Positions 3,091 through 60,561 of a stretch of DNA of 64,000 nt are shown here, piece after piece. The notes beneath the pieces are model-generated. The model searched no databases, was not told where the DNA came from, and was given only the letters and a program-made list of their open reading frames with translations. Origin of the DNA: a virus; the IMG/VR virus record IMGVR_UViG_3300032053_000003, positions 30,392 to 94,391 of that record. One strand, 5' to 3'. The position numbers were made by a program, and so were the translations under genes. Numbering within the stretch: position 1 is the first letter of the stretch; every line of letters begins with the position of its first letter.

Positions 3091-3129
3091 AAAAACAGGA
3101 ACTAGCTAATTTTATGAGTTCCTGTTTTT
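3091..3129. terminator. bidirectional rho-independent terminator hairpin
   Basis: perfect 13-bp stem AAAAACAGGAACT / AGTTCCTGTTTTT with 13-nt loop; A-run and T-run flank so it reads as stem+U-tract on both strands; sits after stop of 3138..4073. Confidence 0.6.
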
Positions 3130-3137
3130 GAGATAGA

Positions 3138-23317: not shown

Positions 23318-23336
23318 TTGTTTTGTTCTCCTAATA

Positions 23337-23377
23337 CCTATATGCTTTTCACTTCAACAATTACTACACTTATTTTA
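23337..23377 (-). promoter_or_regulatory. promoter-like motif B copy 1 (ATATGCTTTTCACTTCAACAATTACTACACTTATTTT)
   Basis: Two copies, 36/37 identical (23337 and 23827). Minus-strand core GTGAAAAGCATAT(AGG) resembles motif A core GTGAAAACCGTTATAGG. Confidence 0.45.
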
Positions 23378-23830: not shown

Positions 23831-23866
23831 ATGCTTTTCACTTCAACAATTACTACACTTATTTTT
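23827..23866 (-). promoter_or_regulatory. promoter-like motif B copy 2
   Basis: near-identical to 23337..23377; lies in divergent intergenic region. Confidence 0.45.
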
Positions 23867-23923
23867 AGTTTTATTTCCATAAGGCTTGTGTTATAAGGAC
23901 AAATCTTTTGAGGGAGGCTTGTT

Positions 23924-40511: not shown

Positions 40512-40512
40512 T

Positions 40513-40845
40513 ATGAGTAAGGCATACCAACTTCTTTTTGAAATATTGAACCCTCACTACCATCTTCGTTTACGAGAGGGGATAGAGGTTAGGAAGGTTC
40601 TTAAATCTACTGATAATGGTAGTTGGGTAGAGAAGGAAGAGATCTGGGGTCTTAATGGTAATACAGATGATGACACCCCAATGATTACTGCATACACTCC
40701 TTCTGGTGATTATCTCGGTGATCCTGATTTTGCTAAAATGTTAGTTAAGAAAGGGATCACTCAGTTTGAGAATACTGAGCCAGATCACTGTGTTTGCTCC
40801 ATAGGTTTTAATCCTGAGAAAAGAATGGAGTGGGTGGAGTCATAG
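40513..40845 (+). CDS. MSKA-tag family protein (MSKAYQLLFEILNP...)
   Basis: 110-aa ORF starting 1 nt after the fibre stop. Confidence 0.5.
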   Translation: MSKAYQLLFEILNPHYHLRLREGIEVRKVLKSTDNGSWVEKEEIWGLNGNTDDDTPMITAYTPSGDYLGDPDFAKMLVKKGITQFENTEPDHCVCSIGFNPEKRMEWVES

Positions 40846-40886
40846 GGCTATATTTTCTTTTGGTATAGGATCAAAAGTTAAAAAAG

Positions 40887-41273
40887 GTGACTGTGGCTAC
40901 ACTCCTGAAAAAGGTGAGTGGGAAGCAAAAACCATTGAAGATGCCAAACTTATGGCTACAGAGTTTGCAAAAGGAGTGTCGTGATATGAGTAAAGCTATT
41001 GGTCTTCTTATGTTGCTTGAGGATGCATCTATTGTAGATAAGTACAAAGACTCCTTAGCCAAACTTAATTCACCCAAAAGAAAAGAGATTATTAAGGCTG
41101 CTTTTGCCAAGGGTGAGAAGTTTGCTGTGAAGCAGGGCTTGATGAAGATGAACAAAGAAGAGCCACTGGACCCTAAAGAGTATAATGCTCTTCTGGACTA
41201 TATGAGTGACCTTGAAAGAAAACCAACTGCTGTTAAGTCAAAGAGTTTTGCAAGTCGTTTCCTGGCCTTTTAA
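40887..41273 (+). CDS. hypothetical protein
   Basis: 128-aa ORF. Confidence 0.45.
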   Translation: MTVATLLKKVSGKQKPLKMPNLWLQSLQKECRDMSKAIGLLMLLEDASIVDKYKDSLAKLNSPKRKEIIKAAFAKGEKFAVKQGLMKMNKEEPLDPKEYNALLDYMSDLERKPTAVKSKSFASRFLAF

Positions 41274-41293
41274 CTAGATCCTGTGAGGCAATA

Positions 41294-41494
41294 ATGAATC
41301 GTTCAAAAAGACTCTTGGTTCTTCTGCGTGAAGAGAACGAAGATAAAGATGGGTGGGTAGGAGTGGATCTTGATTCAACCTTAGCCTTTTATGATGAGTG
41401 GAAAGGTAATGACTATATAGGGAAGCCAATTCCTGAGATGGTCAAGAAAGTTAAGAGTCTTTTGGATCAGGGTAAGCAAGTTAAGATCATATGA
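41294..41494 (+). CDS. hypothetical protein
   Basis: 66-aa ORF. Confidence 0.4.
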   Translation: MNRSKRLLVLLREENEDKDGWVGVDLDSTLAFYDEWKGNDYIGKPIPEMVKKVKSLLDQGKQVKII

Positions 41495-41682
41495 CTGCAC
41501 GAGTTCATCCTGACAATGAAGATGTAGAAGGTATCAGGGAACTTATTCAGAAATGGTGTGAAGAACATCTTGGTCAGGTTCTCCCTGTTACCCATGAGAA
41601 AGACCACAAAATGATTGAACTTTGGGATGACCGATGCAGACAAGTTATTAAAAATACTGGCAGGTTCATTGATGAGGATTAA
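41491..41682 (+). CDS. hypothetical protein
   Basis: 63-aa ORF. Confidence 0.4.
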   Translation: MTARVHPDNEDVEGIRELIQKWCEEHLGQVLPVTHEKDHKMIELWDDRCRQVIKNTGRFIDED

Positions 41683-41720
41683 TCTCTATAGAATTTACCC
41701 TCATATGGAGGATTTTTTAA

Positions 41721-44700: not shown

Positions 44701-44870
44701 AAGTTGCTCATAATCTTGCAGCTGATCTTGTGATGGTACAGTGTTTCAGTGATGACTCTCCTAAGAAAGTAATAATGCCCTATGATATTACATTGGATAC
44801 TACCAATCAGTGTACTGTTAATTGGGGTGATTCATCTGTTGCTGGTAGTGTTTGTGTTTTGAAGTTTTAG
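41721..44870 (+). CDS. fibre protein with six CBM5/12-like (chitin-binding type 3-like) carbohydrate-binding repeats separated by GSSGTSG linkers, and duplicated C-terminal domains
   Basis: Six copies of W...Y.aYDVV......YVC...HTS....PG....W..YW (e.g. QWTASKVYQAYDVVKTDYNSYVCHLGHTSTYNDQPGVGPNWGNYWDTF). Two approximately 120-aa C-terminal repeats (DLDANEWSIVHLNSV... / DLDANNHNIIHLNSV...). Confidence 0.7.
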   Translation: MWTKEDRSFKTLINRRTTDSTGKYWYNEVSDSTLNVHISEIWSDTINESPAQAVIDGVAELRTLFTLTEDTTVPLQYCYYAYSGDRLKDWISTKYGSGYTVHLFDNNNVEIGPTNACQWFFDNQTGILTFNASVAAFAKPFKITGYRYIGAKGVGTSGAGTSGTSGINGSSGTSGIGFSGTSGTSGVGTSGTSSIGVDGSSGTSGLSGSSGTSGPGGSSGTSGFSGTAGQGFSWESQWTASKVYQAYDVVKTDYNSYVCHLGHTSTYNDQPGVGPNWGNYWDTFTEGGIGSSGTSGSGSSGTSGSGSSGSSGSSGTSGSSGSSGTSGSSGSSGTGFYWDDMWQYDHAYGVNAVVESLKSCYICKISHISTYEDEPGVDASGHDWETYWDLMVPGGVGSSGTSGSSGSSGSNGSSGSSGTSGSSGKGFIWGGEWSTYRTFYTYNVVSHLHHGTFVCIQDHISDPMYHAYEPMGNEDWQSYWQPFALSGTSGSSGANGSSGTSGSSGKGFTWTGAWIISHVYDETQMVENGSDSYVCTVSHTSDALNEPGNELTGNDWEDYWDRFLPGGNPGSSGSSGSSGTSGSSGSSGTSGSSGTGGFKWAGGWYEYPSHLYQVHDVVSHNPWGTFVCIQQHLSEYNHEPEVDGDWQSYWQYFAPAGTSGSSGVNGSSGTSGVSPAFTSILSQDLDANEWSIVHLNSVSWNSEYNYGDAGTSATINWTEGQIQKVILTKPSIINFSNPVGVGYYLIRLVTGGYNAVFPSVIWAGGLTPTFGAEAVNLVYIYFNGVTYYGHVWGQGGTSGTSGSCTFTSTLETDLDANNHNIIHLNSVCYNAEYNYGDSGSIATIDWTEGQLQKIDLTDDCEISLSNPKGVGYYLIRLVTGLGSGYGYNATFPDVVWTGPTPVFGDDLENVIYFYFNGINYYGHVWGTGGTGGTSGSGTSGTSGVSGSSGTSGEAGTSGVAGTSGTSGSNGSSGTSGLISTYQYSNTYSASTSWEVAHNLAADLVMVQCFSDDSPKKVIMPYDITLDTTNQCTVNWGDSSVAGSVCVLKF

Positions 44871-44955
44871 AATTACCTTACTCTTGGATGGTCTAGGGGT
44901 AAGTCACTTAATACCAAACGCATAATTGGTATCTATCAAATAACGAGGTGAAATA

Positions 44956-46413
44956 ATGAGGTACTATGGTGTGGAGATGAAGGGTATCCTTCTAATCCAA
45001 AAGGTAGCTGAAAAGCCAGTGTGGGGAACTTCAGATGAGGGTCGTTTCATATATGATCTGGATACCAAGAAGACCTACTATGGTGATAATACCGATTGGA
45101 AAGAGTGGGGTACTTCGGGTACCTCTGGCTCCAGTGGGTCTTCAGGTACTTCTGGCTCAAGTGGTACCTCTGGCTCCAGTGGGTCTGATGGCTCCAGTGG
45201 TACAAGTGGCTCTAGTGGGTCTTCAGGAACCAGTGGCTCCAGTGGGTCTGATGGCTCATCGGGTACCAGTGGCTCTAGTGGATCTTCAGGTACAAGTGGC
45301 TCAAGTGGGTCTTCAGGTACCAGTGGCTCCAGTGGGTCTGATGGCTCATCGGGTACCAGTGGCTCTAGTGGGTCTTCAGGTACAAGTGGCTCAAGTGGGT
45401 CTTCAGGTACCAGTGGCTCCAGTGGGTCTGATGGCTCATCGGGTACCAGTGGCTCTAGTGGGTCTTCAGGTACAAGTGGCTCAAGTGGGTCTGATGGCTC
45501 ATCGGGTACCAGTGGGTCTTCAGGTACAAGTGGCTCTAGTGGTTCTTCAGGAACCAGTGGGTCTTCAGGTACAAGTGGCTCCAGTGGGTCTTCAGGTACA
45601 AGTGGCTCCAGTGGGTCTTCAGGTACAAGTGGCTCCAGTGGGTCTGATGGCTCATCGGGTACCAGTGGCTCCAGTGGTTCATCGGGTACAAGTGGTTCTA
45701 GTGGGTCTTCAGGTACGAGTGGGTCTGATGGCTCCAGTGGTACAAGTGGCTCAAGTGGGTCTTCAGGAACCAGTGGCTCAAGTGGGTCTGATGGCTCCAG
45801 TGGTACTTCTGGCTCAAGTGGGTCTGATGGCTCAAGTGGTACTTCTGGCTCAAGTGGGTCTTCAGGTACCAGTGGTTCTTCAGGCTCCAGTGGTACAAGT
45901 GGCTCCAGTGGGTCTGATGGTTCTTCAGGTACCAGTGGCTCCAGTGGTACAAGTGGCTCTAGTGGGTCTTCAGGAACCAGTGGCTCCAGTGGGTCTGATG
46001 GCTCATCGGGTACCAGTGGCTCTAGTGGGTCTTCAGGTACAAGTGGCTCAAGTGGGTCTTCAGGAACCAGTGGCTCCAGTGGGTCTGATGGCTCATCGGG
46101 TACCAGTGGCTCTAGTGGGTCTTCAGGTACAAGTGGCTCAAGTGGGTCTAGTGGGTCTTCAGGAACCAGTGGCTCCAGTGGTACTTCTCCTATTGAGACC
46201 TATTCCAATACTTATGCTGCTTCCACTTCATGGACAGTAGAACATGCTCTTAACAGTAGTACTCTTCTGGTGCAGTGTTGGGATGCCTCAACTTCAGGGG
46301 TACAGATGATCATTCCTAACTCAATTGTAATCGATACTGTTAACCAGATCATTGTTAACTGGGGTGATTCGGTGGTGGATGGAAGAGTTTGTGTTATTAA
46401 GCTTCTTCCGTAG
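44956..46413 (+). CDS. collagen-like GXY repeat fibre with conserved N-terminal anchor domain (MRYYGVEMKGILL...)
   Basis: about 360 uninterrupted residues of GSSGTSGSSGSDG; N-terminus paralogous to those of 46503 and 51553 genes; C-terminus similar to that of 41721 gene (NWGDSVVDGRVCVIK vs NWGDSSVAGSVCVLK). Confidence 0.7.
   Translation: MRYYGVEMKGILLIQKVAEKPVWGTSDEGRFIYDLDTKKTYYGDNTDWKEWGTSGTSGSSGSSGTSGSSGTSGSSGSDGSSGTSGSSGSSGTSGSSGSDGSSGTSGSSGSSGTSGSSGSSGTSGSSGSDGSSGTSGSSGSSGTSGSSGSSGTSGSSGSDGSSGTSGSSGSSGTSGSSGSDGSSGTSGSSGTSGSSGSSGTSGSSGTSGSSGSSGTSGSSGSSGTSGSSGSDGSSGTSGSSGSSGTSGSSGSSGTSGSDGSSGTSGSSGSSGTSGSSGSDGSSGTSGSSGSDGSSGTSGSSGSSGTSGSSGSSGTSGSSGSDGSSGTSGSSGTSGSSGSSGTSGSSGSDGSSGTSGSSGSSGTSGSSGSSGTSGSSGSDGSSGTSGSSGSSGTSGSSGSSGSSGTSGSSGTSPIETYSNTYAASTSWTVEHALNSSTLLVQCWDASTSGVQMIIPNSIVIDTVNQIIVNWGDSVVDGRVCVIKLLP
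45115..46190 (+). repeat. about 1.1-kb low-complexity coding tandem array (9/18/90-bp periodicities, GSSGTSGSSGSDG)
   Basis: e.g. 90-bp units at 45241-45330, 45331-45420, 45421-45510 are near-identical. Confidence 0.85.
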
Positions 46414-46434
46414 GTAGTCAACATTTGAAGTACA

Positions 46435-46482
46435 GTGGTGGAGTCTTCGGACTCCACCACATATTCGTCTTTATTCATTCTT
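46435..46482 (+). terminator. rho-independent terminator
   Basis: 11-bp perfect stem GTGGTGGAGTC-TTCG-GACTCCACCAC followed by T-rich tract ATATTCGTCTTTATTCATTCTT. Confidence 0.6.
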
Positions 46483-46502
46483 AAACTTCAGAGGAGTACA
46501 TA

Positions 46503-49500
46503 ATGAAGCATTATGGTATTGACTCTCAATATCTGCTTACAGCTGAAAGTTCTCAGTCTTTGCCTACCTGGGATACCAAATACAAGAGGTCTTTCATCTA
46601 TTCTGAAGGAGATAGTAGAATGTATTATGGTACGAATACTGGGTGGGCTGCATGGGGAACCTCAGGAACCAGTGGTATTAAAGGAGAAGTAGGAACTTCA
46701 GGCACCAGTGGGTTAGCTGGGTCCAGTGGGACTTCAGGGTCAAAAGGAGAAGTAGGAACCTCAGGCACCAGTGGGTTAGCAGGATCTTCAGGTACTTCTC
46801 CTACAAGTGTTGGAGCATGGGCTACTACAACTGCTCTCAATGCCAGCAGGACTCAGTTTGGTGGGTGTGGTTCAATAGCTTCTGCTCTTGCTTTTGGAGG
46901 TCACACAGGTGGTGGTGCAGCCTTAAATACTACTGAAATCTGGACAGGATCTTCCTGGATGACAGCTTCAGCTACTCTGACTCAAAGTAAAACTTATTTG
47001 TTAGGTATAGGTGATTCTTCTTCAGCCTTGTGTGTGGGTGGTAGTACTTCAGTTACTGAAAAGTGGTCTGGTACAGGCTGGTCAACCACAGGTAGCTTCC
47101 CTATGGTTATTCATGGTCTTTCTGGTGGTGGTTCAACAACTGCAGCTATTGCCTTTGGTGGTTATACAAGCAATTATTCAAACCAGACAAGTACCTGGAA
47201 TGGTGTAGCTTGGTCTGCTGCTAATACTCTAAATCAGGTAAGAGGCTATGGTTCTGGTTGTGGTAATACAACAACTGCCTTGGCAATTGGTGGATTCTCA
47301 GGAGCAAATCTTAATACTGTTGAGAAGTGGGGTAACTCTTCTTGGAGTACCACTACAGCTATACCTACGGCTACCTGGGGTGCAGGTGCTGCTGGGGGTG
47401 CTAGTTTAGCCATTATCTTTGGTGGAAATACAGGTTCAGGTGCTGCTGCTTGCATTAGTTCTTCTTATGCATGGAATGGATCAGCATGGTCTATTACAAC
47501 TTCTTTGAATGCTGTAGTGGTTAATAATGGTGGAGTTGGTGATAAATCCAATGCCCTTTCTTTTGGTGGGGACACTCAGGGAAGTGTGGCAAGAATAGGT
47601 ACTGAGAAATGGGTGGATGGTACCTCAATTACCTCAGGATCATCTGGCTCCAGTGGGACTTCTAGCTCCAGTGGTACTTCAGGGAGTAGTGGATCTTCTG
47701 GTAGTGGTTCTTCAGGTACCAGTGGCTCAAGTGGCTTAAGTGGTTCTTCGGGGACTAGTGGCTCCAGTGGTTCTTCAGGAACCAGTGGCTCAAAAGGTGA
47801 TGCAGGTTCTAGTGGAACCAGTGGGTCTAGTGGAACCAGTGGCTCTACTGGTGCTGATGGTGCTTTTTCAGGCTTAATTTTATATTTTGATCATGTGGAT
47901 TCTGATCTTACCTTGCCTTCAATTACATTAAGTACATTGGCTTTTGTAAATTCTAATCCTGATACATTAGTCCGTTCTGATGTTGGTAGTTTTATAACTG
48001 ATGGGTATATACCAGGACAAAAACTTAAAATAACAGGTGGGGTTAATGATGGATTGGAATTTCCAATTTTATCAGTAGTTGCTAAAACGATTACTTTTAT
48101 TTATTCGGCTGCAGTGACTGCCCAGGCAGAAGGTATATCTATAACTTTGTCAGTTCAAAGAGAGACTCTTACAAGGGTACCCGTATCAGGAACACAGGTG
48201 ATTGAAAGTGTTGAAGTAAAGAGTACATCTCCAGAAGATGTTGTGGGTGCAACATTAGATTCTTATGCAACTGTGCTGACCGTACCGGGATCAACACGAG
48301 TTCCTTCTGGTGTTTGGACCTTCAGATTTTGGGCATATGCAAGTAATTTGGGATCTGAATCTTATATACATTTTGTTATTGCTAAAAAATCAACGTCTGG
48401 AATTGTTACTGATCTATTTAGCACAATTGAGGGTAAATCAGTAATGGTGTCTCTTGCAGGGGATTCAAACGATCAAAAGAGGTATATTCAGACACATGTA
48501 GAGCCTACAGAGTATTCACTGGCAACCACAGATAGGATAATAGTAAGGGTTGTTGCTACTGCAAAAACTACGACAAGAACTGTATCGTTTATCTATCAAG
48601 GTACAGCAATGGCATCATTTATTGAGACACCGTTTAGTGTATCAGCTCCATCTGGAACATCAGGTACCAGTGGTTCTTCAGGCTCCAGTGGTTCTTCAGG
48701 CTCCAGTGGTACTTCTGGCTCAAGTGGTACCTCTGGCTCCAGTGGGTCTGATGGCTCCAGTGGTACAAGTGGCTCTAGTGGGTCTTCAGGAACCAGTGGG
48801 TCTTCAGGAACCAGTGGCTCCAGTGGGTCTGATGGCTCATCAGGTACAAGTGGCTCAAGTGGGTCTTCAGGAACCAGTGGGTCTTCAGGAACCAGTGGGT
48901 CTTCAGGAACCAGTGGCTCCAGTGGTTCTGGTACTGATGTTACTAAAACTTTCTCTCAAGCTGTTAATACTACTTATATTGCAAGTGTTAGTACAGGTAT
49001 AGTTGTAACAGATAATGATAATATTGATTTTGGAACTGGAGATTTTACTTTAGTCTGGAGAGGGAGTTTACCTGATTGGACTCCAAGTATTTATGGGCAG
49101 ATTATACGACATTATGACAGTAATTTGGGTGTTGGATGGGTATTTAGTACTGATACTGGAAGTACTGGTAAGTTAAGACTTAGAAGAAGTACTAATGTTG
49201 CAACTTCTACAGTCTTTTCTAATATTGTTGATGGATCAGTAGCAGAAGTAGCTGTTGTGGTAGATTCTACTAATGCTACCTTTTATGTTAACGGAGTACA
49301 ATTAGGAAATGCTGTTGCTTGTGGAGCAGTAGATGTTTCTAATACTGGGATACTTGAAATACTTGGAGATCAGAATGGTGCACAACATGCAGGAATCTGT
49401 TTATTTGCTGCTACTTACAATCGTGCTTTAACATCTACAGAAGTATTAGATTTATATAAAAATGGTATCAATTATGCTGATAAATGGGGAAGTCAGACAG

Positions 49501-50879
49501 CACAGTTATCTGGTACTATGTCAGGAGGAGCGTATGATACAATAGACGAGACGACAACTACAGGGTTTCATGCAGTTAATTTAACTTCACACGGAGGATA
49601 TGCAGGAACTACTGATGCGATGTCTGTTGTTGCGGGGAAGAGGTATCGAATATCTTATATAATAGCTCTATCCAGTGGAACATTACCCCAATCTGTTCAA
49701 TTCAGTGAGTCCTTGGGAGGAGGAAGCGTTATTGGTTTTACTAATGTCCCCGTAAATGGTGTTAATTCCACTGAATTTACAGCCTTGTTAACAGGCACTG
49801 GGGTGTTTTGGTGGTATAATAATTCTGGGGCTGTGGACTATACTGTGTCTAATTTTCTCTTTGTCGAAGTTGGGGCAACTCTTGCCCTCGAATCAGAAGG
49901 AATTCATACTGATAAATGGTATGATTCTTCAATAAATGCTTTAGATGCAACTTATCCAACAACAGGAAGTAGCCTAGTCAGGAATCCTTTTTTACCTATG
50001 ATTGTGGGAGGAGATAAAACAACATCTGATCTTACATTAAAAACTACTATTGGAGTAGGTACAACTGGTGCAGATATGCACTTTTTAGTGGGTAATAATG
50101 GTGCAACTGAGGCTATGACTATTTTAAATAATGGTAATATTGGTATGTTTACAACTGATATTGAAGCCTGGTCTGCTAGTTATTGGGCTATTCAATTTCC
50201 AGTTGGGGCATTACAGATAGCCAAAACAAGTCCTGTTATAGGTGTTACAGATAATTCATATTATACTGCCACTGGGTATAAACGTAGAATAGAAGCAGCA
50301 GCAGCACAATATATAATAAATAGTGGAACACATAGCTTTCGAGTAGTAGCATCAAATACTATTGATAGTGTAATAACTTGGATATCTGCAATGAGGGTTG
50401 ATAATACAGGCAACGTAGGCATTGGGAATTTTGAATTGGGAATAGAACCTGCAACTAAGCTTGATGTAGCAGGTTCAATGCAGGTTTCATCTGCTGTGGC
50501 TCTCAGTTTAGGTGGTTATGTAAGAACATTTGCAGAGGCTACAGGCACTCCTTCTGGTTCAACTACATATTTTGATATAGCTGTTAACGTACCCACTGGA
50601 TGTAAATTATTAGGTTGTCAATTAAGAGTGGATGCTACTCTTGCAACTGGGGAAACCTGGGGAGCTGCCTATATTACTGGCTCTACAACTGTGATAGCAG
50701 CAGCAGGTCAGGCTGTTGCAGCAAATACTAAAGTAAATAAAATGCATCTTGATGAGATAACCTCAGCAACTACTAAAGTAAGGATTACCAGAGATTCAGG
50801 TAATTTTTCAAATGGATATGGGATTATACGAGCAATAGTTTATTATGAAACATTTACGGCAATGGGCAACGCCAATTGA
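46503..50879 (+). CDS. giant fibre protein (1458 aa): N-terminal anchor domain + Kelch-type beta-propeller + GXY linkers + LamG/concanavalin-like lectin domain + C-terminal domains
   Basis: Six repeats of about 50 aa with GG...W...W (ALAFGGHTGGGAALNTTEIWTGSSW...). LamG-like segment DFGTGDFTLVWRGSL...ATFYVNGVQLG...; two GSSGTSG blocks. Confidence 0.7.
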   Translation: MKHYGIDSQYLLTAESSQSLPTWDTKYKRSFIYSEGDSRMYYGTNTGWAAWGTSGTSGIKGEVGTSGTSGLAGSSGTSGSKGEVGTSGTSGLAGSSGTSPTSVGAWATTTALNASRTQFGGCGSIASALAFGGHTGGGAALNTTEIWTGSSWMTASATLTQSKTYLLGIGDSSSALCVGGSTSVTEKWSGTGWSTTGSFPMVIHGLSGGGSTTAAIAFGGYTSNYSNQTSTWNGVAWSAANTLNQVRGYGSGCGNTTTALAIGGFSGANLNTVEKWGNSSWSTTTAIPTATWGAGAAGGASLAIIFGGNTGSGAAACISSSYAWNGSAWSITTSLNAVVVNNGGVGDKSNALSFGGDTQGSVARIGTEKWVDGTSITSGSSGSSGTSSSSGTSGSSGSSGSGSSGTSGSSGLSGSSGTSGSSGSSGTSGSKGDAGSSGTSGSSGTSGSTGADGAFSGLILYFDHVDSDLTLPSITLSTLAFVNSNPDTLVRSDVGSFITDGYIPGQKLKITGGVNDGLEFPILSVVAKTITFIYSAAVTAQAEGISITLSVQRETLTRVPVSGTQVIESVEVKSTSPEDVVGATLDSYATVLTVPGSTRVPSGVWTFRFWAYASNLGSESYIHFVIAKKSTSGIVTDLFSTIEGKSVMVSLAGDSNDQKRYIQTHVEPTEYSLATTDRIIVRVVATAKTTTRTVSFIYQGTAMASFIETPFSVSAPSGTSGTSGSSGSSGSSGSSGTSGSSGTSGSSGSDGSSGTSGSSGSSGTSGSSGTSGSSGSDGSSGTSGSSGSSGTSGSSGTSGSSGTSGSSGSGTDVTKTFSQAVNTTYIASVSTGIVVTDNDNIDFGTGDFTLVWRGSLPDWTPSIYGQIIRHYDSNLGVGWVFSTDTGSTGKLRLRRSTNVATSTVFSNIVDGSVAEVAVVVDSTNATFYVNGVQLGNAVACGAVDVSNTGILEILGDQNGAQHAGICLFAATYNRALTSTEVLDLYKNGINYADKWGSQTAQLSGTMSGGAYDTIDETTTTGFHAVNLTSHGGYAGTTDAMSVVAGKRYRISYIIALSSGTLPQSVQFSESLGGGSVIGFTNVPVNGVNSTEFTALLTGTGVFWWYNNSGAVDYTVSNFLFVEVGATLALESEGIHTDKWYDSSINALDATYPTTGSSLVRNPFLPMIVGGDKTTSDLTLKTTIGVGTTGADMHFLVGNNGATEAMTILNNGNIGMFTTDIEAWSASYWAIQFPVGALQIAKTSPVIGVTDNSYYTATGYKRRIEAAAAQYIINSGTHSFRVVASNTIDSVITWISAMRVDNTGNVGIGNFELGIEPATKLDVAGSMQVSSAVALSLGGYVRTFAEATGTPSGSTTYFDIAVNVPTGCKLLGCQLRVDATLATGETWGAAYITGSTTVIAAAGQAVAANTKVNKMHLDEITSATTKVRITRDSGNFSNGYGIIRAIVYYETFTAMGNAN

Positions 50880-50911: not shown

Positions 50912-51535
50912 ATGAACCTTTTTGCACCCAAACCCAAAAGTTTGATTCTTGATCCTTATTCTGGGACACCAGTGGAACTTCAAAATTTCCACATTGAGCC
51001 TTGTGACCTCTTTTTTACCCATGGTGATAAACTTTTTAGTAAGATTATTAGGCTTGGTGAAAAACATCTAGGTGATTGGATCTCTGTTATAAATCATACA
51101 GGGATAGTAGTTGAGCAAGGAACCATAGGGTCTGCTGATGTGATTGAAGCATTGGCTACAGTAAAGAAGCATACTTTATGGGAACAGTATCATGGTCAAT
51201 CAGATCAGGTAGCCGTATTTAGGCCCCTTGGCCTTACTGATGAGCAAAAGAAAATCATTGTTGATAAGGCTATTGATTATGAGGGTAGAACATATGGGTA
51301 TGCAAAGATAGCCACTAATGCTTTAGATTTCTTTACTGGTGGTCATTATATCTTCAGAAGACTAACAAATAGTGATCAGTATCCTATTTGTAGTTGGGTA
51401 GTAGCCCACTCATATTCCAAGGTGGGTCTGACATTCGGTTGTGATCCAGGACAGGCAAATCCAGATGATATATGGGATTACTGCTTGGGTCATCCAGATA
51501 AATATCAACTTATTTTCAGCCTACAAAAAGTATAA
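50912..51535 (+). CDS. putative cell-wall hydrolase, permuted NlpC/P60 (YiiX/DUF830-like) papain-fold peptidase
   Basis: H..G (NHTGIVV) precedes the Cys motif (YPICSWVV), the order typical of permuted NlpC/P60; lies between fibre genes like a tail-associated lysin. Confidence 0.45.
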   Translation: MNLFAPKPKSLILDPYSGTPVELQNFHIEPCDLFFTHGDKLFSKIIRLGEKHLGDWISVINHTGIVVEQGTIGSADVIEALATVKKHTLWEQYHGQSDQVAVFRPLGLTDEQKKIIVDKAIDYEGRTYGYAKIATNALDFFTGGHYIFRRLTNSDQYPICSWVVAHSYSKVGLTFGCDPGQANPDDIWDYCLGHPDKYQLIFSLQKV

Positions 51536-51552
51536 ACAGGAGGTAAGACCAA

Positions 51553-52382
51553 TGAGGCATTATGGTATTGATGATCAATATTTACTGCAAGCGGAGACAT
51601 GTGACCCTCTTCCTTCTTGGGAAGCAAAGTACACCAGGAGCTTCATTTATGACCTTGATACTAAGACAATGTACTATGCTACGGATACAAAGTGGGTAGC
51701 TGTCAGTGCTAACGTACTTGCTGGCTATATTCATCCTCAGGCATCAGCATCAGCAACTTGGAGTGTTGTTCATGATCTGGGTGTCCAGGATGTAAGTGTC
51801 ACCGTCTATGGTGAGGACAACAAGGTCATGATGCCTATCGACATTGAGACAATCAGTGTCAATGCTCTCACAATTACCTTTGGTGAGGCTGTGGCAGGTA
51901 AGGCTGTCATCGTTACAGGTAACCCTGGCACAGTGACCTACAGTCAGCAGAAGGTTACACTTGCCAAAGGGACCTCTCTTGCTGATGGTGATTGGAAGGG
52001 TCTGGCTATTACAGGTGCAGTAGGTGGTTCAATAACCAAGGGAGACCTCTGCTACTGCAAACTTAATTTGGGTGCTTGGAAGTACTATCGTTATGATGCT
52101 GATGCTACTGATAAGCTAATTCTCCCCTCAGCCTTAGCTCTTGATTCTTACATATCAGGGGATGGTAGCTTCTTAATCGATGGTGAGATGAGGAATGATG
52201 CTTGGACAGGGCTTGCTGGGACTGCTGATGCATCAACTACAGTCTATGCAAGTACGGCTACAGGTAACCTTACCATGACTGCCCCAGCTGTCTCAGGTAA
52301 CGAAGTTGTTGTTGTAGGTGTACTCATTGCTGCTTACACCCTTCAGCTAAAGATCGGGTATGCTTGGCTTGAGGTGAAGTAA
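51553..52382 (+). CDS. short fibre protein with conserved N-terminal anchor domain (MRHYGIDDQYLLQAETCDPLPSWEAKYTRSFIY...)
   Basis: GGAGG SD before ATG 51553; N-terminus paralogous to 44956 and 46503 genes. ORF-track start 51441 would overlap the upstream gene. Confidence 0.6.
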
Positions 52383-54252: not shown

Positions 54253-57200
54253 GTGTGCATGCCTGATAAATTTGAAAATATATTGGCTGTTTGTAGCTTT
54301 CTGGGCACTTCTGGTTATAACTATCATGCTCGTGGGTTTTTTACAGCACTCAATAAGCTTCTCCCTGTAGCTATCAAGAATTGGTCCTATGATGATAATC
54401 CTTATTATCTGACCAATGAGCAAAAGGTTATGATGGCTGCTGCCTCTGGGAAGAGCTTTTCCTTCGGTGAGTGCATTACTGTATGTCTTCACGAATCCAA
54501 TCATGAAGATTGGTATAAACATGCTTACAAGTCACCTAAGATAGCCTTTAATGTATGGGAATCTACCAGACAGACTGAGAGGTTTTTTCAGAAGCTTCTT
54601 GAGTTTGACCAGATCTGGGTCCCCAGTGAATGGCAGAAGAAGTATACGGTTGAACAGGGTGCCCCTGCTGATAAGGTATTTGTTATACCTGAAGGAATAG
54701 ATACAGATCGTTTCAAGGTTACAGAGCCTACTATTAACTACCATTTTGCAGATAAGGATAAGTTTACTTTTACTATTGCAGGTAGGTGGGAATATCGAAA
54801 AGCTACAACAGAGATGATCCGGACATTCAATGAGACTTTTAGAGATGTAGATGATGTTGAGTTACTTATCCTGGTAGATAATCCTTTTGATAGACAGAAA
54901 ATGTCTACAGAGGACAAACTATTACAGAATGGCTTAGGTAATAAAAAGATCAAAATCCTTCATAAACTCTCACAAGAGGATTATGACCAGCTGATATGTG
55001 AAACAAATTGTTTCTTATCTTGTAGTAGGGCTGAGGGCTGGAACCTTCCATTATGTTTTCCAGTAGGTACAGAGATTATTACTCCTAGTGGTTTTAAGCT
55101 TATAGAGACTATTAAACAGGGTGATGATGTATTTTCTCATAAGGGATTATCTAGAAAAGTTAAAGGTGTAATGACCAGGGAGTACAGAGGTGATTTAATT
55201 AATGTTGATATTTATAATAATATAAATACTCTCTCTGCTACTCCTGAACATCCTGTGAGGGTTATTAAACGAAATAGGATGTCTACTATGTATGGTGGTT
55301 CCTTATTGGAGTATATTCAAAAGAGAAAGTTGGAACCTGAGTGGATTCCAATAAAAGAGATAGAAAAAGGGGATCTTCTTGTTCAGGCTATTCCTTGTAC
55401 TTTATTAAAGAATAATATTACTATAGATTTATTGAATTATCTACCAAATATGCAGTTTGATTCTGAATATATTTGGAGCAAATATAGTAATAATCCAAAG
55501 GAAAAGGGGAGTAATGTTAAAAAAGTTAATAGATTTGTTAAGTTAAAGGATCTAACCTTTTTGATAGGTTGGTATCTTGCTGAAGGTAATTCTTATAAAA
55601 CTAGGTTGGACTTTACAGTTAACTCTATTACAGAACAAGGAGTTGCAGCTAGGATTAAGGATGATTTTAATAGGTTGTTTGGTGTTGACTCTGTTTTTAA
55701 GGAAGACTCTGATAAAGATGCATTGCACATAAGGATCAGCTCCTCAATATTGGCTACTTTTTTTAAGCTTTATTGTGGGGGCAAGCAAAGTTTCAGGTTT
55801 ATCCCTAATGAAGTTTTATATGGTAATATTGACATCCTACAAGAAGTCATATCAAATTTATTCTTAGGTGATGGGTGTCATCAGCAGGAGAGGGATAGGA
55901 ATCTACTTACTACATGTTCCGAAGTGCTTGCTAATCAGGTTGTAATAGCATTGCATAGATTAGGTTACAAGGCAGGAACTCAGAAAGTAAAAAGAAATAG
56001 AAAATGTAAGCATTATGTAGTTAGTTTTGCTTATGATTCTTTTAATGGTACACATAGTAACAAACAGTATGTTTTTGAGAAAGAGGTATGGCATTTTGTT
56101 AAAAAAGTAACAAAGACTTCTTATGAGGGCATTGTATACAATTTTGAAGTAGAGAAAGATAATTCGTATCTTACTCATACAGCTTCTGTGCATAATTGTG
56201 AGTTCATGGCTTGTGGAGTCCCTGCTATATGCTCAAACTGGTCAGGTCATCTGGAATTTGCTAAGGATTATGCCAGTCTTGTTAATACAGATTATCTAAA
56301 AGCTGCATGGTCAGAGTTTGGTGACTTTCCTGGAGAGTATGCTGAGCCTGATTTTAAGCATCTTGGTCAGTTGATGTTGGCACACTATGCTGATCATTCA
56401 AACTTTACTACTAGAGCAGTAGAAGGGGCTGAGTACCTAAAGGGCTTTACTTGGGAGAATGCAGCTAAAATAGCTCTGAGTACCATGAAGCCCTTGATGA
56501 TAAGGACTACACCTATAAACATTGTAGAGCCTAAAGGTGAGAAACCTCCTGTTAAGGTTGAGGTTACTGAGCCTATTGTAATCAAAAAGTCTGAGATAAA
56601 GGCTGAGGTCAGTAAGAAGGTGAAAAGTAAGGACATCATCGTTATTGACTGCTTTCCTAATACTGAAAATAAGTTAAAAAAGCTTGTTGACACTATTTAT
56701 TTTGTAAAGAAGTTTGAAAAACCAATAGCACTGGTATCTCATCTTCCTATCCCAGAAAGTGTACAGGTCCTTGTAGATTACTACATCTTTGATGTTGACA
56801 ATACCCTGCCTGATTACAGGTTGCCTATATACTATACCTTCAGTGATTTAAAGTTGTTAGGCAGACTTGATCGTCCTTATCATAGTCTCCCTATTGTGAA
56901 GTCCCTTCAGAATATCTGTAAGATGTTCTCTAATTTTGAGAGGATACACTTCATTGAATACGATATAAACATTGATTTTGAGAAGCACCTTTCAAATGTA
57001 GCAACCCATAAGGACAAGGATCTGGTTAGCTACTTCTATGAGGGCACTGGTATCTATACCAATATCATGACCTTTAAGCCTTCTCTGATGCTTGAGGTTC
57101 TCACAACCCAGACTCTTAATTGGGAAGACTACAAGAAGATGGCTTCTCCTGTGATACTGGAGAGAGATCTCATCTTTGAAAATTGGATGTTCAAGATCCT

Positions 57201-58713
57201 TACCAGTGCTGGAAAGACAGATAACATGGTCGTTCTTAAGTCTGATACTATCAATATGAAGTTAGATGAGTTCAAGGAAATGCCTGTAGTCAACTTTGTG
57301 GTTTGTGAGACAGAGGATGACAAGAATGTCCTGTTTGTAATCCATAGGAATATCGATCCTAAAGAGTTCATATTTGACCCAGCAGGGTTAAAGCTTATCA
57401 GTAATGGTGCTGATCCCTACTCATATGTCATTTTTGACAGAGATATAACAAATGTGACAGTTCACGGTATGGGTAAGACTTTTGATGTCGATGTTGTTAA
57501 TGAATACAAGGGTGAATTCCTCTTCTTTGATGGGTGTCCTGCTGCTGATATCAAATGTAAGAAGTCTGAGTTCTGGAGGGGAATAAGCTCCAAGCACAAT
57601 ATTCAATACAGAAATTTTTTCATTGATGGTGCTTTTATGGAGCTTCTGGGTCCTACTACTGATGATAAGTACAAAGTGACTTTTACTGATCGTCACTCTG
57701 GTCAGATAGTTCATTCAACAGAGATTGGGATCAACTGTTGGACAAAGACCAATAGGAAGTACTACACAGATTGGAACGTAAAGGTCACTTCTAATGATGA
57801 AGAGCTTTACAACCAGGACATATCCTACTTTCAGAGAAGGGTTTTTGTTGTTCTTGACTCTAAGGCTATGGGAGATACCCTAGCTTGGTTCCCCATGGTG
57901 GAAGAATTCAGAAAGAAGCATAATGCTCATGTAATATGTTCCTCCTTCTGGAATAAGTTCTTCAAGTCCAAGTACCCTGAGATAGATTTCATAGAGCCAG
58001 GGCAGTCGGTTCCAGATATCTTTGCTCAGTTCAATGTGGGTTGTTATGATAATGATCTCAATAGGAATAGGTTCAATTGGAGGATCACCCCTCTTCAGAA
58101 GGTGGCTGCTGATATTCTGGGGATTACAAGATATGTGGAGGTTCTTCCTAATGTAGCCTATAAAGTTCTGGATAGACCAATAAAAGAGAAGTATGTGGCT
58201 ATCTCAGAACACTCGACTTTTATGTGTAAATACTGGTTGAATTCTGGAGGGTGGTCTACAGTAATAAACTACCTCAATGATCTGGGTTATGTTGTGGCTG
58301 CTATATCCAAAGAAACTACCCAGCTTCCTGGTATAGTAGACCTCACAGGAAAGCCTATTGAGGAGACCATCAGTAACATCCATCACTCTTCCATGTTCAT
58401 TGGCATGTCCTCTGGTCCTTCATGGCTCTCTTGGGCTCTCAAGAAGCCCCTGGTACTTATCTCAGGATATTCTAAAGAGTGGGCTGAGATGGATTTCAAG
58501 AATCCTCTTGTGAGCAGGGTTATTAACAAGGATGTCTGTCATGGATGCTTTAATGATCCTTCTCTTCCTCTTGAACGTGGTAGTTGGAGATGGTGTCCTC
58601 GTGGAAGGGATTTTGAGTGCAGTAAGATGATCTCCCCTGAGATGGTGATGGAGGGTATCAATAAGTTCTTTGGTATGAATAAGAATAGTGCAGGGTACGG
58701 AAGGTTATTATGA
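54253..58713 (+). CDS. multi-domain glycosyltransferase (1486 aa): N-terminal GT4-like domain interrupted by an intein, central domain of unknown function, C-terminal GT9 (heptosyltransferase-like) domain
   Basis: The two extein halves, AEGWNLPL and CEFMACGVPAICS, join to give the GT4 motif (EGFGLPVLEAMACGVPVIAS-like). C-terminus VVLDSKAMGDTLAWFPMVEEFRKKHNAHVICSS ... GMSSGPSWLSWALKKPLVLISG matches GT9 N- and C-terminal blocks. Confidence 0.7.
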   Translation: MCMPDKFENILAVCSFLGTSGYNYHARGFFTALNKLLPVAIKNWSYDDNPYYLTNEQKVMMAAASGKSFSFGECITVCLHESNHEDWYKHAYKSPKIAFNVWESTRQTERFFQKLLEFDQIWVPSEWQKKYTVEQGAPADKVFVIPEGIDTDRFKVTEPTINYHFADKDKFTFTIAGRWEYRKATTEMIRTFNETFRDVDDVELLILVDNPFDRQKMSTEDKLLQNGLGNKKIKILHKLSQEDYDQLICETNCFLSCSRAEGWNLPLCFPVGTEIITPSGFKLIETIKQGDDVFSHKGLSRKVKGVMTREYRGDLINVDIYNNINTLSATPEHPVRVIKRNRMSTMYGGSLLEYIQKRKLEPEWIPIKEIEKGDLLVQAIPCTLLKNNITIDLLNYLPNMQFDSEYIWSKYSNNPKEKGSNVKKVNRFVKLKDLTFLIGWYLAEGNSYKTRLDFTVNSITEQGVAARIKDDFNRLFGVDSVFKEDSDKDALHIRISSSILATFFKLYCGGKQSFRFIPNEVLYGNIDILQEVISNLFLGDGCHQQERDRNLLTTCSEVLANQVVIALHRLGYKAGTQKVKRNRKCKHYVVSFAYDSFNGTHSNKQYVFEKEVWHFVKKVTKTSYEGIVYNFEVEKDNSYLTHTASVHNCEFMACGVPAICSNWSGHLEFAKDYASLVNTDYLKAAWSEFGDFPGEYAEPDFKHLGQLMLAHYADHSNFTTRAVEGAEYLKGFTWENAAKIALSTMKPLMIRTTPINIVEPKGEKPPVKVEVTEPIVIKKSEIKAEVSKKVKSKDIIVIDCFPNTENKLKKLVDTIYFVKKFEKPIALVSHLPIPESVQVLVDYYIFDVDNTLPDYRLPIYYTFSDLKLLGRLDRPYHSLPIVKSLQNICKMFSNFERIHFIEYDINIDFEKHLSNVATHKDKDLVSYFYEGTGIYTNIMTFKPSLMLEVLTTQTLNWEDYKKMASPVILERDLIFENWMFKILTSAGKTDNMVVLKSDTINMKLDEFKEMPVVNFVVCETEDDKNVLFVIHRNIDPKEFIFDPAGLKLISNGADPYSYVIFDRDITNVTVHGMGKTFDVDVVNEYKGEFLFFDGCPAADIKCKKSEFWRGISSKHNIQYRNFFIDGAFMELLGPTTDDKYKVTFTDRHSGQIVHSTEIGINCWTKTNRKYYTDWNVKVTSNDEELYNQDISYFQRRVFVVLDSKAMGDTLAWFPMVEEFRKKHNAHVICSSFWNKFFKSKYPEIDFIEPGQSVPDIFAQFNVGCYDNDLNRNRFNWRITPLQKVAADILGITRYVEVLPNVAYKVLDRPIKEKYVAISEHSTFMCKYWLNSGGWSTVINYLNDLGYVVAAISKETTQLPGIVDLTGKPIEETISNIHHSSMFIGMSSGPSWLSWALKKPLVLISGYSKEWAEMDFKNPLVSRVINKDVCHGCFNDPSLPLERGSWRWCPRGRDFECSKMISPEMVMEGINKFFGMNKNSAGYGRLL
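55054..56196 (+). other. intein (381 aa) with LAGLIDADG homing-endonuclease domain, inserted in the GT4 catalytic motif
   Basis: Begins at Cys1 (CFPVGTEIITPSGFKLIETIKQGDDVF, Hint block A). LAGLIDADG blocks LIGWYLAEGNS and LFLGDGC. Ends ...ASVHN followed by +1 Cys at 56197. Confidence 0.75.
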
Positions 58714-59070: not shown

Positions 59071-59793
59071 ATGAAAGAGAAGTTCTGGATTAATCAAGGT
59101 GGTACCCTAACTATTAGGGACCTATTAGGGGAAAGTAGAAATTGGGATCGTGATAGATTTCTCAGGAGAGAAGGTCTCGATCTCTACAACTTTCAATGGG
59201 AAGAGAACATAAACTTCTATGACTTCTCTGCTGGTGGTAGTATGTACGGGGTTGGTGGTCTCAGAGTATCTCCTGGTGACGTTGTAGTAGATATTGGTGC
59301 CAATATTGGGTTGTGGTCACTCATAGCTCTTGATGCTGGTGCTTCTTCTGTACTTAGTTTTGAGCCTGTAAGACTGAATTACATATGTCTTTGCTTGAAT
59401 ACCTTTGGTTCTCATGTTCGTCCATATAACTTGGCTATAGGTGATAGAGTAATTAAATCATCATTGAATATCCATGACAGTATGGGTTTTTTTGATGATA
59501 ACCCTGATGATCCTGCTGAGGATATTCTCACTGTAACAGTGGACTGGCTGTTTGATGTTGGCCTGGTATCTGAGATAGACTTTCTTAAGATCGACATTGA
59601 AGGCTATGAGGATCGTGTGCTTTACAATGTCAGTAAGGATAGGATGGCTAAGATTAATAAAATATCCATGGAGTATCATAACTCTTGTCCAACAGATTAT
59701 GAGGATCTCATAAGATATCTTGCTACTCATGGAATCAAACTCAAATTCAGGTTGGATCTTGTGAATGAGAGAATGTTGACGTTTGAACGATAA
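59071..59793 (+). CDS. FkbM-family SAM-dependent methyltransferase
   Basis: VVDIGANIGLWS (motif I) and DFLKIDIEGYE are the FkbM (Methyltransf_21) hallmarks. Confidence 0.75.
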   Translation: MKEKFWINQGGTLTIRDLLGESRNWDRDRFLRREGLDLYNFQWEENINFYDFSAGGSMYGVGGLRVSPGDVVVDIGANIGLWSLIALDAGASSVLSFEPVRLNYICLCLNTFGSHVRPYNLAIGDRVIKSSLNIHDSMGFFDDNPDDPAEDILTVTVDWLFDVGLVSEIDFLKIDIEGYEDRVLYNVSKDRMAKINKISMEYHNSCPTDYEDLIRYLATHGIKLKFRLDLVNERMLTFER

Positions 59794-59802: not shown

Positions 59803-60561
59803 ATGTCTTTCCTCAGCTTTTATTGCAGAAATAAGCTTTATGGATGTCTCCTTGGTATGGATGCCTTCCCTAAGCCTCAAACCTTTATAGGGTTTGGAAG
59901 AACTGCACCTGTTGATCCTCCTGGTACTGTTGAAGAGCCTGTTAATGACGATTACAATAGAATCTTTTATACACACTGGAAGATAGCAGGTAGGGACGTA
60001 TCAAATGATACTACCATAACTGCCTATACCAGAACTGACTGGGGGACCCTCACACACTTCCTTATCTGGGATGCTCTTGAAGGTGGAAACCTCTTGGCAT
60101 ATGGTGTTCTTCCTGATCCTGTTGTTGCTCCAAGTGGACGAGTTCTCTCATTCTCAAAGAATAAGCTGCAACTTCAGATCATACCAGGTACAATTACTAA
60201 CTACCTTACTAACAGATTCCTTGAGCATCTCTTTGGGATTGTAACCTTGGCATCCATTCATAGCTACATAGGTCTTTCCTATACCAATCCTGGAGATGCA
60301 GGGACTCCTGTACATCCTATTAGTGCAGATTATCATGATGTGGCTTTTCTGGGATGGGAGATCTCTGATCTTAGTGAGCTTGTAAACATTGCAGCAATCA
60401 ATTTTATTCCTAGAACTGACTGGGGTGCTCTTCCTTATGTGTATGTAAGGGATGCTGAAGGTAGAACCCTCTTTTACTCTGCTTTTGAGAGTCCTATAGT
60501 AGCCGATCAGTATAGTCCTGTGGTTATTGAACCAAACCAGCTTACTATAGTTTTTGATTAA
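59803..60561 (+). CDS. hypothetical protein with internal duplication (TDWGTLTHFLIWDALEGGNLLAYG / TDWGALPYVYVRDAEGRTLFYS)
   Basis: 252-aa ORF; GGAGG SD. Confidence 0.5.
   Translation: MSFLSFYCRNKLYGCLLGMDAFPKPQTFIGFGRTAPVDPPGTVEEPVNDDYNRIFYTHWKIAGRDVSNDTTITAYTRTDWGTLTHFLIWDALEGGNLLAYGVLPDPVVAPSGRVLSFSKNKLQLQIIPGTITNYLTNRFLEHLFGIVTLASIHSYIGLSYTNPGDAGTPVHPISADYHDVAFLGWEISDLSELVNIAAINFIPRTDWGALPYVYVRDAEGRTLFYSAFESPIVADQYSPVVIEPNQLTIVFD

Follow-up and report, generated by a model that had tools for sequence, protein, structure and literature searches.

A predicted class 1 LAGLIDADG intein splits EX7E in the GT4 glycosyltransferase gene of an uncultivated jumbo phage

Introduction

The closest described structural counterparts of the element reported here are archaeal and yeast LAGLIDADG inteins, namely TliVMA (7qsu), PhoVMA (7qst), PI-SceI (1vde), PI-PkoII (2cw7) and PI-PfuI (1dq3). 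These inteins reside in V-ATPase or DNA polymerase. Their Hint domain is split by a two-motif endonuclease, and their junctions are marked by Cys1, a TxxH motif, a terminal His-Asn (HN) pair and a +1 Cys. Here we describe an insert with the same anatomy, very probably a class 1 intein, in the GT4 domain of a glycosyltransferase gene of an uncultivated jumbo phage. The gene lies within 64,000 nt of record IMGVR_UViG_3300032053_000003. This whole stretch is called the window below, and coordinates are window positions unless another contig is named. The split Hint domain and the junction residues are common to the window intein and the archaeal and yeast inteins, which are its best structural matches (query-normalized TM-score, TMq, 0.51–0.64), yet sequence identity to them is only 13–16%. 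The window intein differs from them in its phage GT4 host and in an Asn at position 4 of block F (F:4); its length of 381 aa falls short of the 454 aa of PI-SceI and the 537 aa of PI-PkoII.

Phage inteins are known from terminase, ribonucleotide reductase (RNR), helicase, portal, DNA methylase and similar genes (PMC5050341, PMC4760082). They are mobile, as we propose for the window intein, and, like it, they are patchily distributed among related phages and interrupt conserved motifs of active centres whose substrate contains a nucleotide. A GT4 host is not in the host lists of either paper, and the string 'glycosyl' occurs in neither text (Novikova 2016, PMC4760082; Kelley 2016, PMC5050341). 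A study of Anaeramoeba likewise mentions no glycosyltransferase among intein hosts. An established precedent for a sugar-transferring enzyme as intein host is fungal chitin synthase (CHS), a GT2 enzyme (Green et al. 2018, PMC5784728). That system differs from ours in fold and family (GT-A-like GT2 versus GT-B GT4), in domain of life and in insertion motif, and homology of the sites is not implied. In the open-access literature we found no paper on inteins in GT4 enzymes or glycosyltransferase motifs; an earlier mention elsewhere is possible. A previous sequence-only reading of the window had called the insertion site unusual. This holds for the literature, where no GT4 hosts were found, but not for sequence space, as inteins in the GT4 EX7E motif are common in metagenomes, and the chitin synthase precedent tempers the claim further. 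The mechanism is conventional, whereas the host family, the insertion site and the heavy colonization of the motif in phage metagenomes appear to be new.

Results

The insert lies between X6 and X7 of EX7E

EX7E is the sugar-nucleotide-binding motif of GT4 glycosyltransferases. The translation of the insert starts with CFPVGTEIITPSG and ends with ASVHN, and the next codon is TGT. Cys1 is encoded at 55054–55056 and Cys+1 at 56197–56199, the junction arrangement of a class 1 intein, for which position 1 is Cys or Ser and position +1 is Cys, Ser or Thr. The element had been proposed from sequence as a 381-residue insert with a Cys start, an HN end and a +1 Cys, and these boundaries are exact to the base by translation. 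The insert occupies residues 266–646 of the 1484-aa precursor. It is preceded by ...SRAEGWNLPL, followed by CEFMACGVPAICS, and located between X6 and X7 of EX7E (E259-G-W-N-L-P-L-intein-C-E648). The N-extein thus ends with the first Glu and X1–X6 (55033–55053), the +1 Cys becomes X7, and the second Glu follows directly at 56200–56202.

The sequence-only reading had also proposed that removal of the insert rebuilds a GT4 motif. It does, and more precisely the rebuilt motif is EX7E. In the unspliced sequence, PF00534 (Glycos_transf_1) scored 27.9 bits against a cut-off of 26.4 and the match stopped at residue 263. After in silico removal the score rose to 49.2 bits (E 5.8e-13) and the alignment passed through the junction, while Glyco_trans_1_4, Glyco_trans_1_2 and GT4-conflict reached significance. 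The spliced sequence also aligns over the junction to BshA of Bacillus anthracis and B. subtilis (SRAEGWNLPLCEFMACGVP versus SEKESFGLVLLEAMACGVP), and the junction matches the BshA EX7E, ESFGLVLLEAMACGVP, in which the motif reads ESFGLVLLE. The predicted ligated junction peptide is AEGWNLPLCEFMACGVPAICS.

In a 64-sequence family alignment, R257, E259, G260, P264, L265 and G653 never vary and E648 hardly does. Because the residues around it are invariant in the 64 homologues, the intein lies in the most conserved patch of the GT4 domain. That the glycosyltransferase is under strong purifying selection, as the site had been taken to imply, can reasonably be inferred, since the insertion point is among the invariant residues of the family. 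In a model of precursor residues 1–764, ten-residue block means of the predicted local distance difference test score (pLDDT) were mostly above 88 in the extein, and every ten-residue block up to residue 260 was at 73 or higher. Values fell below 50 at residues 259–265, just ahead of the intein. A Foldseek search with this model matched inteins together with the GT4 structures GlgM, HepE, MshA, PimA, BshA and PglA, in keeping with the two-Rossmann GT-B fold. By homology and model, the host domain is a predicted retaining glycosyltransferase of family GT4 with a GT-B fold.

The insert carries class 1 splicing residues and a two-motif endonuclease

Class 1 splicing draws on Cys1, the Thr and His of block B, the penultimate His, the terminal Asn and the +1 residue (PMC4031507). 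In an alignment of seven homologues and in the 47 GT4-hosted relatives described below, C1, T63, H66, N363, H380, N381 and the +1 Cys are invariant or at least 90% conserved. Cys1, Thr63 and Asn381 do not vary within the 47-sequence alignment, and conservation is at least 90% at His66, His380 and Cys+1. The reading frame of the insert is also intact, with no stops compared to 16–64 in the other five frames. Stops in 2000 shuffles of the insert averaged 32.6 with a minimum of 15, and the chance of an open frame of 381 codons at this composition is about 1.6e-15. The opposite strand within the insert has no open reading frame (ORF) of 80 aa or more.

Searched alone against Pfam, the insert matched LAGLIDADG_3 (PF14528) at 27.4 bits (cut-off 22.5; E 4e-6), and also Intein_splicing (5.3e-7), Hint_2 and Vint, these three under their curated cut-offs. 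The NCBIfam model intein_Nterm (TIGR01445) scored 23.7 bits, just below its cut-off of 24.5. The window protein also matches NCBIfam models of archaeal RNA polymerase A'', DNA polymerase II and V-ATPase, because inteins are embedded in those models. Among PDB sequences, the best phmmer matches were the PI-PkoII intein endonuclease (5.5e-5) and a VMA intein. In the alignment to PI-PkoII, LIGWYLAEG and LFLGDG of the window lie over LLGYYVSEG and FIGDGD. E177 and D273 therefore occupy the catalytic acidic positions, being aligned with the SEG and GDG of PI-PkoII. In both the seven-sequence and 47-sequence sets, D273 and the glycines of the LAGLIDADG motifs are either invariant or conserved in at least 90%. 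E177 is invariant among the seven but is outside the columns that are at least 90% conserved in the 47.

An AlphaFold2 model of the intein, built from seven sequences, had a mean pLDDT of 83.6 and a predicted TM-score (pTM) of 0.76, with only 12 residues under pLDDT 50. Foldseek against the PDB placed TliVMA on top (E 6e-19, TMq 0.64), followed by PI-SceI, PI-PkoII, PhoVMA and PI-PfuI, and the matches to endonuclease-bearing inteins span E 6e-19 to 7e-11. The free-standing LAGLIDADG enzyme I-DmoI matches the central endonuclease lobe (target-normalized TM-score, TMt, 0.62–0.70; E about 4e-6). In the model this lobe runs twice through an alpha-beta-beta-alpha-beta-beta-alpha pattern, the pseudo-dimeric fold. 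The Hint block A and the two LAGLIDADG blocks that had been noted from the sequence are thus borne out by the located motifs, by PF14528 above its cut-off and by the PI-PkoII alignment. The Hint fold, whose absence from a predicted structure would have spoken against an intein, is present in the model (matches to TliVMA, PI-SceI and PI-PkoII).

Empty and occupied alleles

Relatives of the host gene were collected by a word-indexed search with the GT4-plus-intein region as query, which returned 521 relatives; the motif residues were read in 117 listed members. P and L numbers below are our identifiers for proteins and loci. The closest orthologues (P0003–P0008 and P0010), 67–81% identical in the N-extein, are without the insert, and their single residue at the position of the window's +1 Cys is H, M, I or Q. 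They are 1064–1105 aa long, except for the 771-aa P0004, compared to 1103 aa for the predicted spliced product. Four members with 41–48% extein identity (P0009, P0011–13) contain a homologous intein of 372–374 aa at the identical point, followed by a +1 Cys, and these inteins are 38–41% identical to that of the window. The insert is therefore an in-frame insertion, with homologues that lack it and a host motif that is restored on its removal. The alternative that it is a native glycosyltransferase domain, raised with the first reading of the sequence, is contradicted by the alignment of the extein junction to GT4 homologues, where orthologues are without the insert at the exact point. An assembly chimera was rejected on the grounds that homologous inteins occur at the same codon on independent contigs from other samples.

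Position X7 across the 117 listed members is Ile in 95, Met in 8, Leu in 3, His in 2, Ser in 2 and Gln in 1. Four of the 117 have an intein plus Cys, and 113 are intein-free. Cys at X7 without an intein occurs in two, P0027 (EGWNLPLCEAAACG) and P0097 (EGWNIPLCEAIACG), and may be the footprint of precise intein loss or a pre-adapted target site. The phage contig that encodes the intein-free P0003 is syntenic with the window; collagen-like fibre genes precede the P0003 gene and a Gp80-like gene follows it. The intein-bearing P0009 is on a 140-kb phage-like contig, within a sugar-modification gene cluster.

EX7E-associated inteins across metagenomes

To place the intein among its relatives, 1.84 billion representatives of 50%-identity clusters were searched exhaustively with phmmer, giving 5628 relatives at E ≤ 1e-3 and 58 at E ≤ 1e-30. 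Junctions were read in the best 150. The protein of the window was itself recovered at 100% identity (P0123, on a 237-kb metagenomic contig). At least 47 of these 150 intein clusters are in or beside an EX7E-type motif, at six or more distinct insertion points. With a slash for the point of insertion, these are before the first Glu (...VQYSV/CEGFGMPxxEA, n = 9), after position 3 (EGF/CLPxLEAM, n = 6), after position 5 (EGFGL/CxxEAM, n = 7), after position 6 (EGFGIP/CLEAM, n = 10), after position 7, the site in the window (EGWNLPL/CEAM, n = 12 with the window's own protein included), and after position 12 (LEAMA/CG, n = 3). Besides these 12 cluster representatives, P0009, P0012 and P0013 from the family search also have an intein at the window's point, and neighbouring points of the same motif account for at least 35 further representatives among the best 150. 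In 19 of the 150, counting the window's protein, the exteins are detectably homologous to the window GT4 and split at the same alignment position. An unspliced scan of the 47 found PF00534 in 37 and Intein_splicing in 42.

The metagenomic EX7E inteins (P0009, P0011–13, P0124–P0129, P0132 and others) are true relatives of the window intein, 34–41% identical to it and none closer than 41%. Their hosts have other architectures (FkbM, methyltransferase and GT9 fusions), some with a second intein. The cluster members that were looked up are all metagenomic, with none from NCBI, and all four genomic contexts inspected look phage-like (P0003, P0009 and two more). It is an even question whether uncultivated phages have, in the EX7E motif of GT4, a major hot spot for inteins that has gone undescribed so far, with inteins moved between very divergent GT4 genes. 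The case for it is the count of at least six points within about 13 residues, in about a third of the 150 closest clusters.

Other searches were narrower. When the query was just the intein, a word-indexed search yielded two matches, a SufB intein and one unnamed protein; this search was insensitive and was replaced by phmmer. Scanning the window with the intein as query revealed no further intein. A tblastn search of isolated phages with the intein returned six records at 21–27% identity, in RNR, 'tRNA synthetase' and hypothetical genes, with no glycosyltransferase. The strict DNA pattern EGWNLPLC[FLIV]P was not broad enough to serve as a census; its matches were one IMG/VR contig, one contig of a metagenome-assembled genome (MAG) and one chance match with in-frame stops (L010). 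The MAG contig (L011, JAFGOA010000025.1, 37.7 kb, Promethearchaeota, Asgard) has a GT4 gene with an intein at the same codon (2661–2689 of L011), and this intein is 61% identical to that of L009 (IMGVR_UViG_3300009502_001526). L011 may be a mis-binned viral contig or a virus associated with a Promethearchaeota host.

Some glycosyltransferases contain two related inteins, one in or beside EX7E and a second, N-terminal one (metagenomic P0126 and P0136). The flank of the N-terminal intein, ...CLDFKPDIV/C..., recurs in about a dozen proteins of about 1300 aa, and the observation of double or N-terminal inteins takes in P0134, P0135, P0138, P0143, P0163, P0191, P0197 and P0224. One such gene (L008, 10001–13816) lies in a phage replication module with split Pol III alpha, SSB, UDG and PhoH. 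Names can mislead in this family. P0279, a member of a GT4-intein cluster, is called 'ribonucleoside-diphosphate reductase alpha chain', and a related intein in Eggerthella phage LE2-3 (MW679026.1, 45636–46799) lies in a gene labelled 'tRNA synthetase'.

Composition, selection and mobility

The intein has a G+C content (GC) of 32.5%, compared to 38.7% and 40.3% for the exteins and 41.2% for the window. It is the lowest-GC of all 1143-bp windows in the 64 kb, with 0.03% of positions as low, and its GC at third codon positions (GC3) is 0.25 versus 0.36 and 0.43 in the exteins. The related locus L002 has the same bias (intein 26% GC, exteins 32–34%). This extreme low GC suggests a foreign origin of the intein. 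Other 1143-bp windows at 34% GC or less occur only at 2095–3742, overlapping a Mom-like DNA-modification ORF (3138–4073), and at 23253–24398; these two stretches may be other acquired segments.

Nei-Gojobori ratios of nonsynonymous to synonymous divergence (dN/dS) were about 0.15–0.35 in both the Hint and endonuclease halves among family members with DNA. These values come from the closer family pairs only, and comparisons of the window's own intein with its relatives were left out owing to saturated dS.

Intein and extein divergence are incongruent in the family. The P0125 intein is 44–48% identical to those of P0009, P0011, P0128 and P0129, whose exteins are just 23–27% identical to its own. 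Conversely, P0126, P0136 and P0164 have exteins that are 67–69% identical and inteins only 39–44% identical. Such incongruence is the expected outcome of repeated transfer, loss and replacement. For the window's copy, identity to relatives over the full intein is 34–41%. DNA identity to the nearest empty allele, L005, is 75% across the N-extein and 70% across the 90-nt junction; a definition of the homing site from comparison with L005 was dropped, as the two alleles are too divergent.

Host gene and genomic neighbourhood

The precursor ORF starts at GTG 54253 or, more likely, at ATG 54259, which has a Shine-Dalgarno-like GAGGGG five bases upstream and corresponds to the Met at which homologues begin. 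The N-extein matches PF00534 and PF13439 in Pfam. The C-terminal domain passes the equivalog cut-off of TIGR04414 (246.7 bits versus 200, E 3.4e-73), the Aah/TibC family of autotransporter strand-loop-strand O-heptosyltransferases, with a weak match to PF01075; in the phage it is a putative protein O-heptosyltransferase. It contains a four-Cys stretch, VCHGCFND ... WCPRGRDFECSK. The middle region, which separates the GT4 domain from the TibC-like one, matches nothing in Pfam at E ≤ 0.01 and is conserved in the close orthologues P0003–P0007.

The intein-bearing gene follows four large collagen-repeat or tail-fibre ORFs and precedes an FkbM methyltransferase gene and a Gp80 fibre-like gene (Table 1). 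The fibre ORFs match tail-fibre and collagen-like PHROG families, and the last of them also matches Pfam Collagen repeats (92.4 bits). The FkbM gene directly downstream matches PF05050 (6.6e-11) and the Gp80-like gene PF23140 (2.4e-25). Because FkbM domains are fused to GT4 in many relatives, the FkbM and GT4 genes probably act together. A GT4 domain and a predicted protein O-heptosyltransferase within a tail-fibre module suggest glycosylation of virion fibre proteins.

An ORF with an HNH-endonuclease-like PHROG match (3.1e-11), some 2.7 kb upstream of the intein, may encode a free-standing homing endonuclease. It is overlapped by an ORF with a weak Peptidase_C92 match. The window also encodes transposase-like (phrog_4285), RtcB (3.3e-113) and sigma-factor-like proteins, typical jumbo-phage accessory genes. 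The whole gene had no megablast match in 50,697 phage genomes, and by this comparison the phage appears to be without a close cultured relative. Among isolates, the nearest to carry the gene without an intein is Microcystis phage Mel-JY01 (36.8% identity).

Table 1. Positions of the intein, its host gene and neighbouring genes in the window
Feature	Position	Strand	Description
Precursor ORF	54259–58713	+	1484 aa plus stop; GT4 split by intein, middle region, C-terminal TibC/Aah-type domain
N-extein	54259–55053	+	aa 1–265; GT-B N-terminal domain and first part of C-terminal Rossmann domain
Intein	55054–56196	+	381 aa; class 1, with LAGLIDADG homing endonuclease
Block A with Cys1 nucleophile	55054–55092	+	CFPVGTEIITPSG; aa 1–13 of intein; C1 invariant in 47 GT4-hosted inteins
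Block B	55240–55251	+	TPEH, aa 63–66; Thr63 (B:7), His66 (B:10)
Homing-endonuclease domain	55516–56058	+	about aa 155–335
LAGLIDADG motif 1	55561–55590	+	LIGWYLAEGN, aa 170–179; acidic residue E177
LAGLIDADG motif 2	55858–55878	+	LFLGDGC, aa 269–275; acidic residue D273
Blocks F and G	56128–56196	+	block F GIVYNFEVEKDNSYL, aa 359–373; block G ASVHN, aa 377–381; His380 penultimate, Asn381 terminal
C-extein	56197–58710	+	+1 Cys, then rest of GT4 domain (CEFMACGVPAICS...)
Middle region	56527–57618	+	364 aa
Aah/TibC autotransporter-type O-heptosyltransferase domain	57619–58665	+	TIGR04414, aa 1121–1469
RtcB tRNA-splicing ligase	10300–11391	-	
Transposase-like ORF	14926–16230	-	
Sigma-factor-like ORF	30406–31194	-	
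Tail-fibre/collagen-like ORFs	35772–50879	+	four consecutive ORFs of 1579, 1049, 485 and 1458 aa
Peptidase_C92-like ORF	50912–51535	+	207 aa
HNH-endonuclease-like ORF	51441–52382	+	313 aa
FkbM-family methyltransferase	59071–59793	+	
Gp80 fibre-like protein	59803–60561	+	

Discussion

The insert is very probably a genuine class 1 intein with a monomeric two-motif LAGLIDADG endonuclease, placed between X6 and X7 of EX7E in the GT4 domain of a multi-domain phage glycosyltransferase. Taking the parts separately, our confidence that it is an intein at all is high, it is likely to be competent for splicing today, and the balance of the sequence evidence tilts somewhat towards an endonuclease that is active today. 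Translation would yield the 1484-aa precursor with a split EX7E and hence a split GT4 catalytic centre, and because EX7E is not contiguous, the GT4 domain of the precursor should be inactive. Cys1 would then undergo an N-S acyl shift, and the resulting thioester would be attacked by the +1 Cys. Cyclization of Asn381, assisted by His380, would free the intein, and an S-N shift would leave a normal peptide bond (...EGWNLPL-C-EFMACG...). The mature enzyme of 1103 aa would have an intact EX7E with Cys at X7, a residue also found there in two intein-free relatives. The released 43-kDa intein could cut the intein-less EX7E-coding DNA of co-infecting relatives, and repair would copy the intein into the cut allele. 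Homing of this kind would explain both the patchy distribution and the AT-rich, foreign-looking composition of the intein.

Several points weigh against this interpretation. Splicing and cleavage are predictions from sequence and model. Of the profiles searched with the insert alone, LAGLIDADG_3 is the only one that passes, while Intein_splicing, Hint_2 and intein_Nterm stay below their curated cut-offs. The dN/dS values are rough, given dS near saturation (0.8–2) in the family pairs. Comparison with the nearest intein and the nearest empty allele gave no trace of recent homing for the window's copy, because that intein is only about 41% identical and that allele only 75% identical in DNA. Finally, F:4 is Asn363 and not the usual Asp, which departs from the class 1 pattern. 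Block F position 4 is most often Asp, yet is described as 'less conserved' (PMC4031507), and for this reason the Asn is a deviation from the class 1 norm and not an exclusion. Since all 47 GT4-hosted relatives have Asn at this position, it looks like a family trait and not decay.

The same Asn, the intein profile scores under cut-offs and the want of a close intein relative could instead point to a decayed, non-splicing remnant in a protein whose GT4 domain is dead and whose downstream domains, such as the TibC-like heptosyltransferase, alone work. We consider this highly improbable. The nucleophiles and assisting residues are intact and conserved across the 47 divergent relatives, with the F:4 Asn among them, and 381 codons are stop-free at 32% GC. 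The EX7E residues flanking the insert are still canonical, dN/dS is below 1 in family members, and the Hint-plus-LAGLIDADG model is confident and compact, with just the 12 low-confidence residues. A native accessory domain of this glycosyltransferase lineage has a negligible probability. The glycosyltransferases of the family do carry variable extras (FkbM, methyltransferase, GT9), but nothing specific favours such a domain here. The closest orthologues precisely lack the insert, and apart from X7 not a single residue is missing or extra. The insert also combines the Hint fold with a full set of splice-junction residues, and the catalytic motif that it interrupts is unbroken in all solved GT4 structures.

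If the insert is a class 1 intein that splices, it could still be immobile, with an inactive or targetless endonuclease, vertical inheritance and sporadic loss. The divergence of the window intein from its relatives is similar to that of the exteins, which fits old co-divergence, and no near-identical intein was found in a different extein background. We nevertheless think immobility unlikely, though by no means negligible. E177 and D273 are present, and GDG of motif 2 is at least 90% conserved in the 47 relatives. The endonuclease half evolves at dN/dS of about 0.15–0.35 in related pairs, the outlying GC suggests a foreign origin, and some intein pairs in the family are clearly more alike than their exteins. 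The intein might also have been co-opted as a regulator, with conditional splicing (through a Cys1/Cys+1 redox disulfide, temperature or substrate) turning GT4 on at a certain stage of infection. Both junction nucleophiles are Cys, the split catalytic motif should keep the precursor inactive, and conditional splicing has been discussed for other inteins, with RadA as an example (PMC4760082). There is, however, no sign of regulation, and 113 of the 117 listed motif-bearing homologues, as well as the closest orthologues, are intein-free. This distribution is the pattern expected of a selfish element, and a regulatory role seems improbable.

A class 1 intein in a GT4 motif bears on how intein hosts are viewed. 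Host surveys put the weight on ATPases and on enzymes that act in DNA and RNA metabolism, and inteins in the catalytic motif of sugar transferases widen that range. They still fit the rule that the homing target is DNA fixed by an active-site peptide that binds a nucleotide-containing substrate. Inteins also lead to misannotation of such genes, as in the names 'RNR alpha chain' and 'tRNA synthetase' and the matches to RNA polymerase A''. The neighbouring insertion points within one motif are a natural test bed for the colonization or shift of sites, and the compact intein of 381 aa with its Cys1/Cys+1 pair, coming as it does from a mesophilic phage, could become a part for protein engineering. 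For the phage itself, the intein would mark the GT4 domain as indispensable. Should EX7E prove to be an intein hot spot, the rule of inteins in nucleotide-binding centres of replication proteins would extend to glycan-modifying enzymes, and glycosylation of the virion or the host by these phages would hinge on protein splicing.

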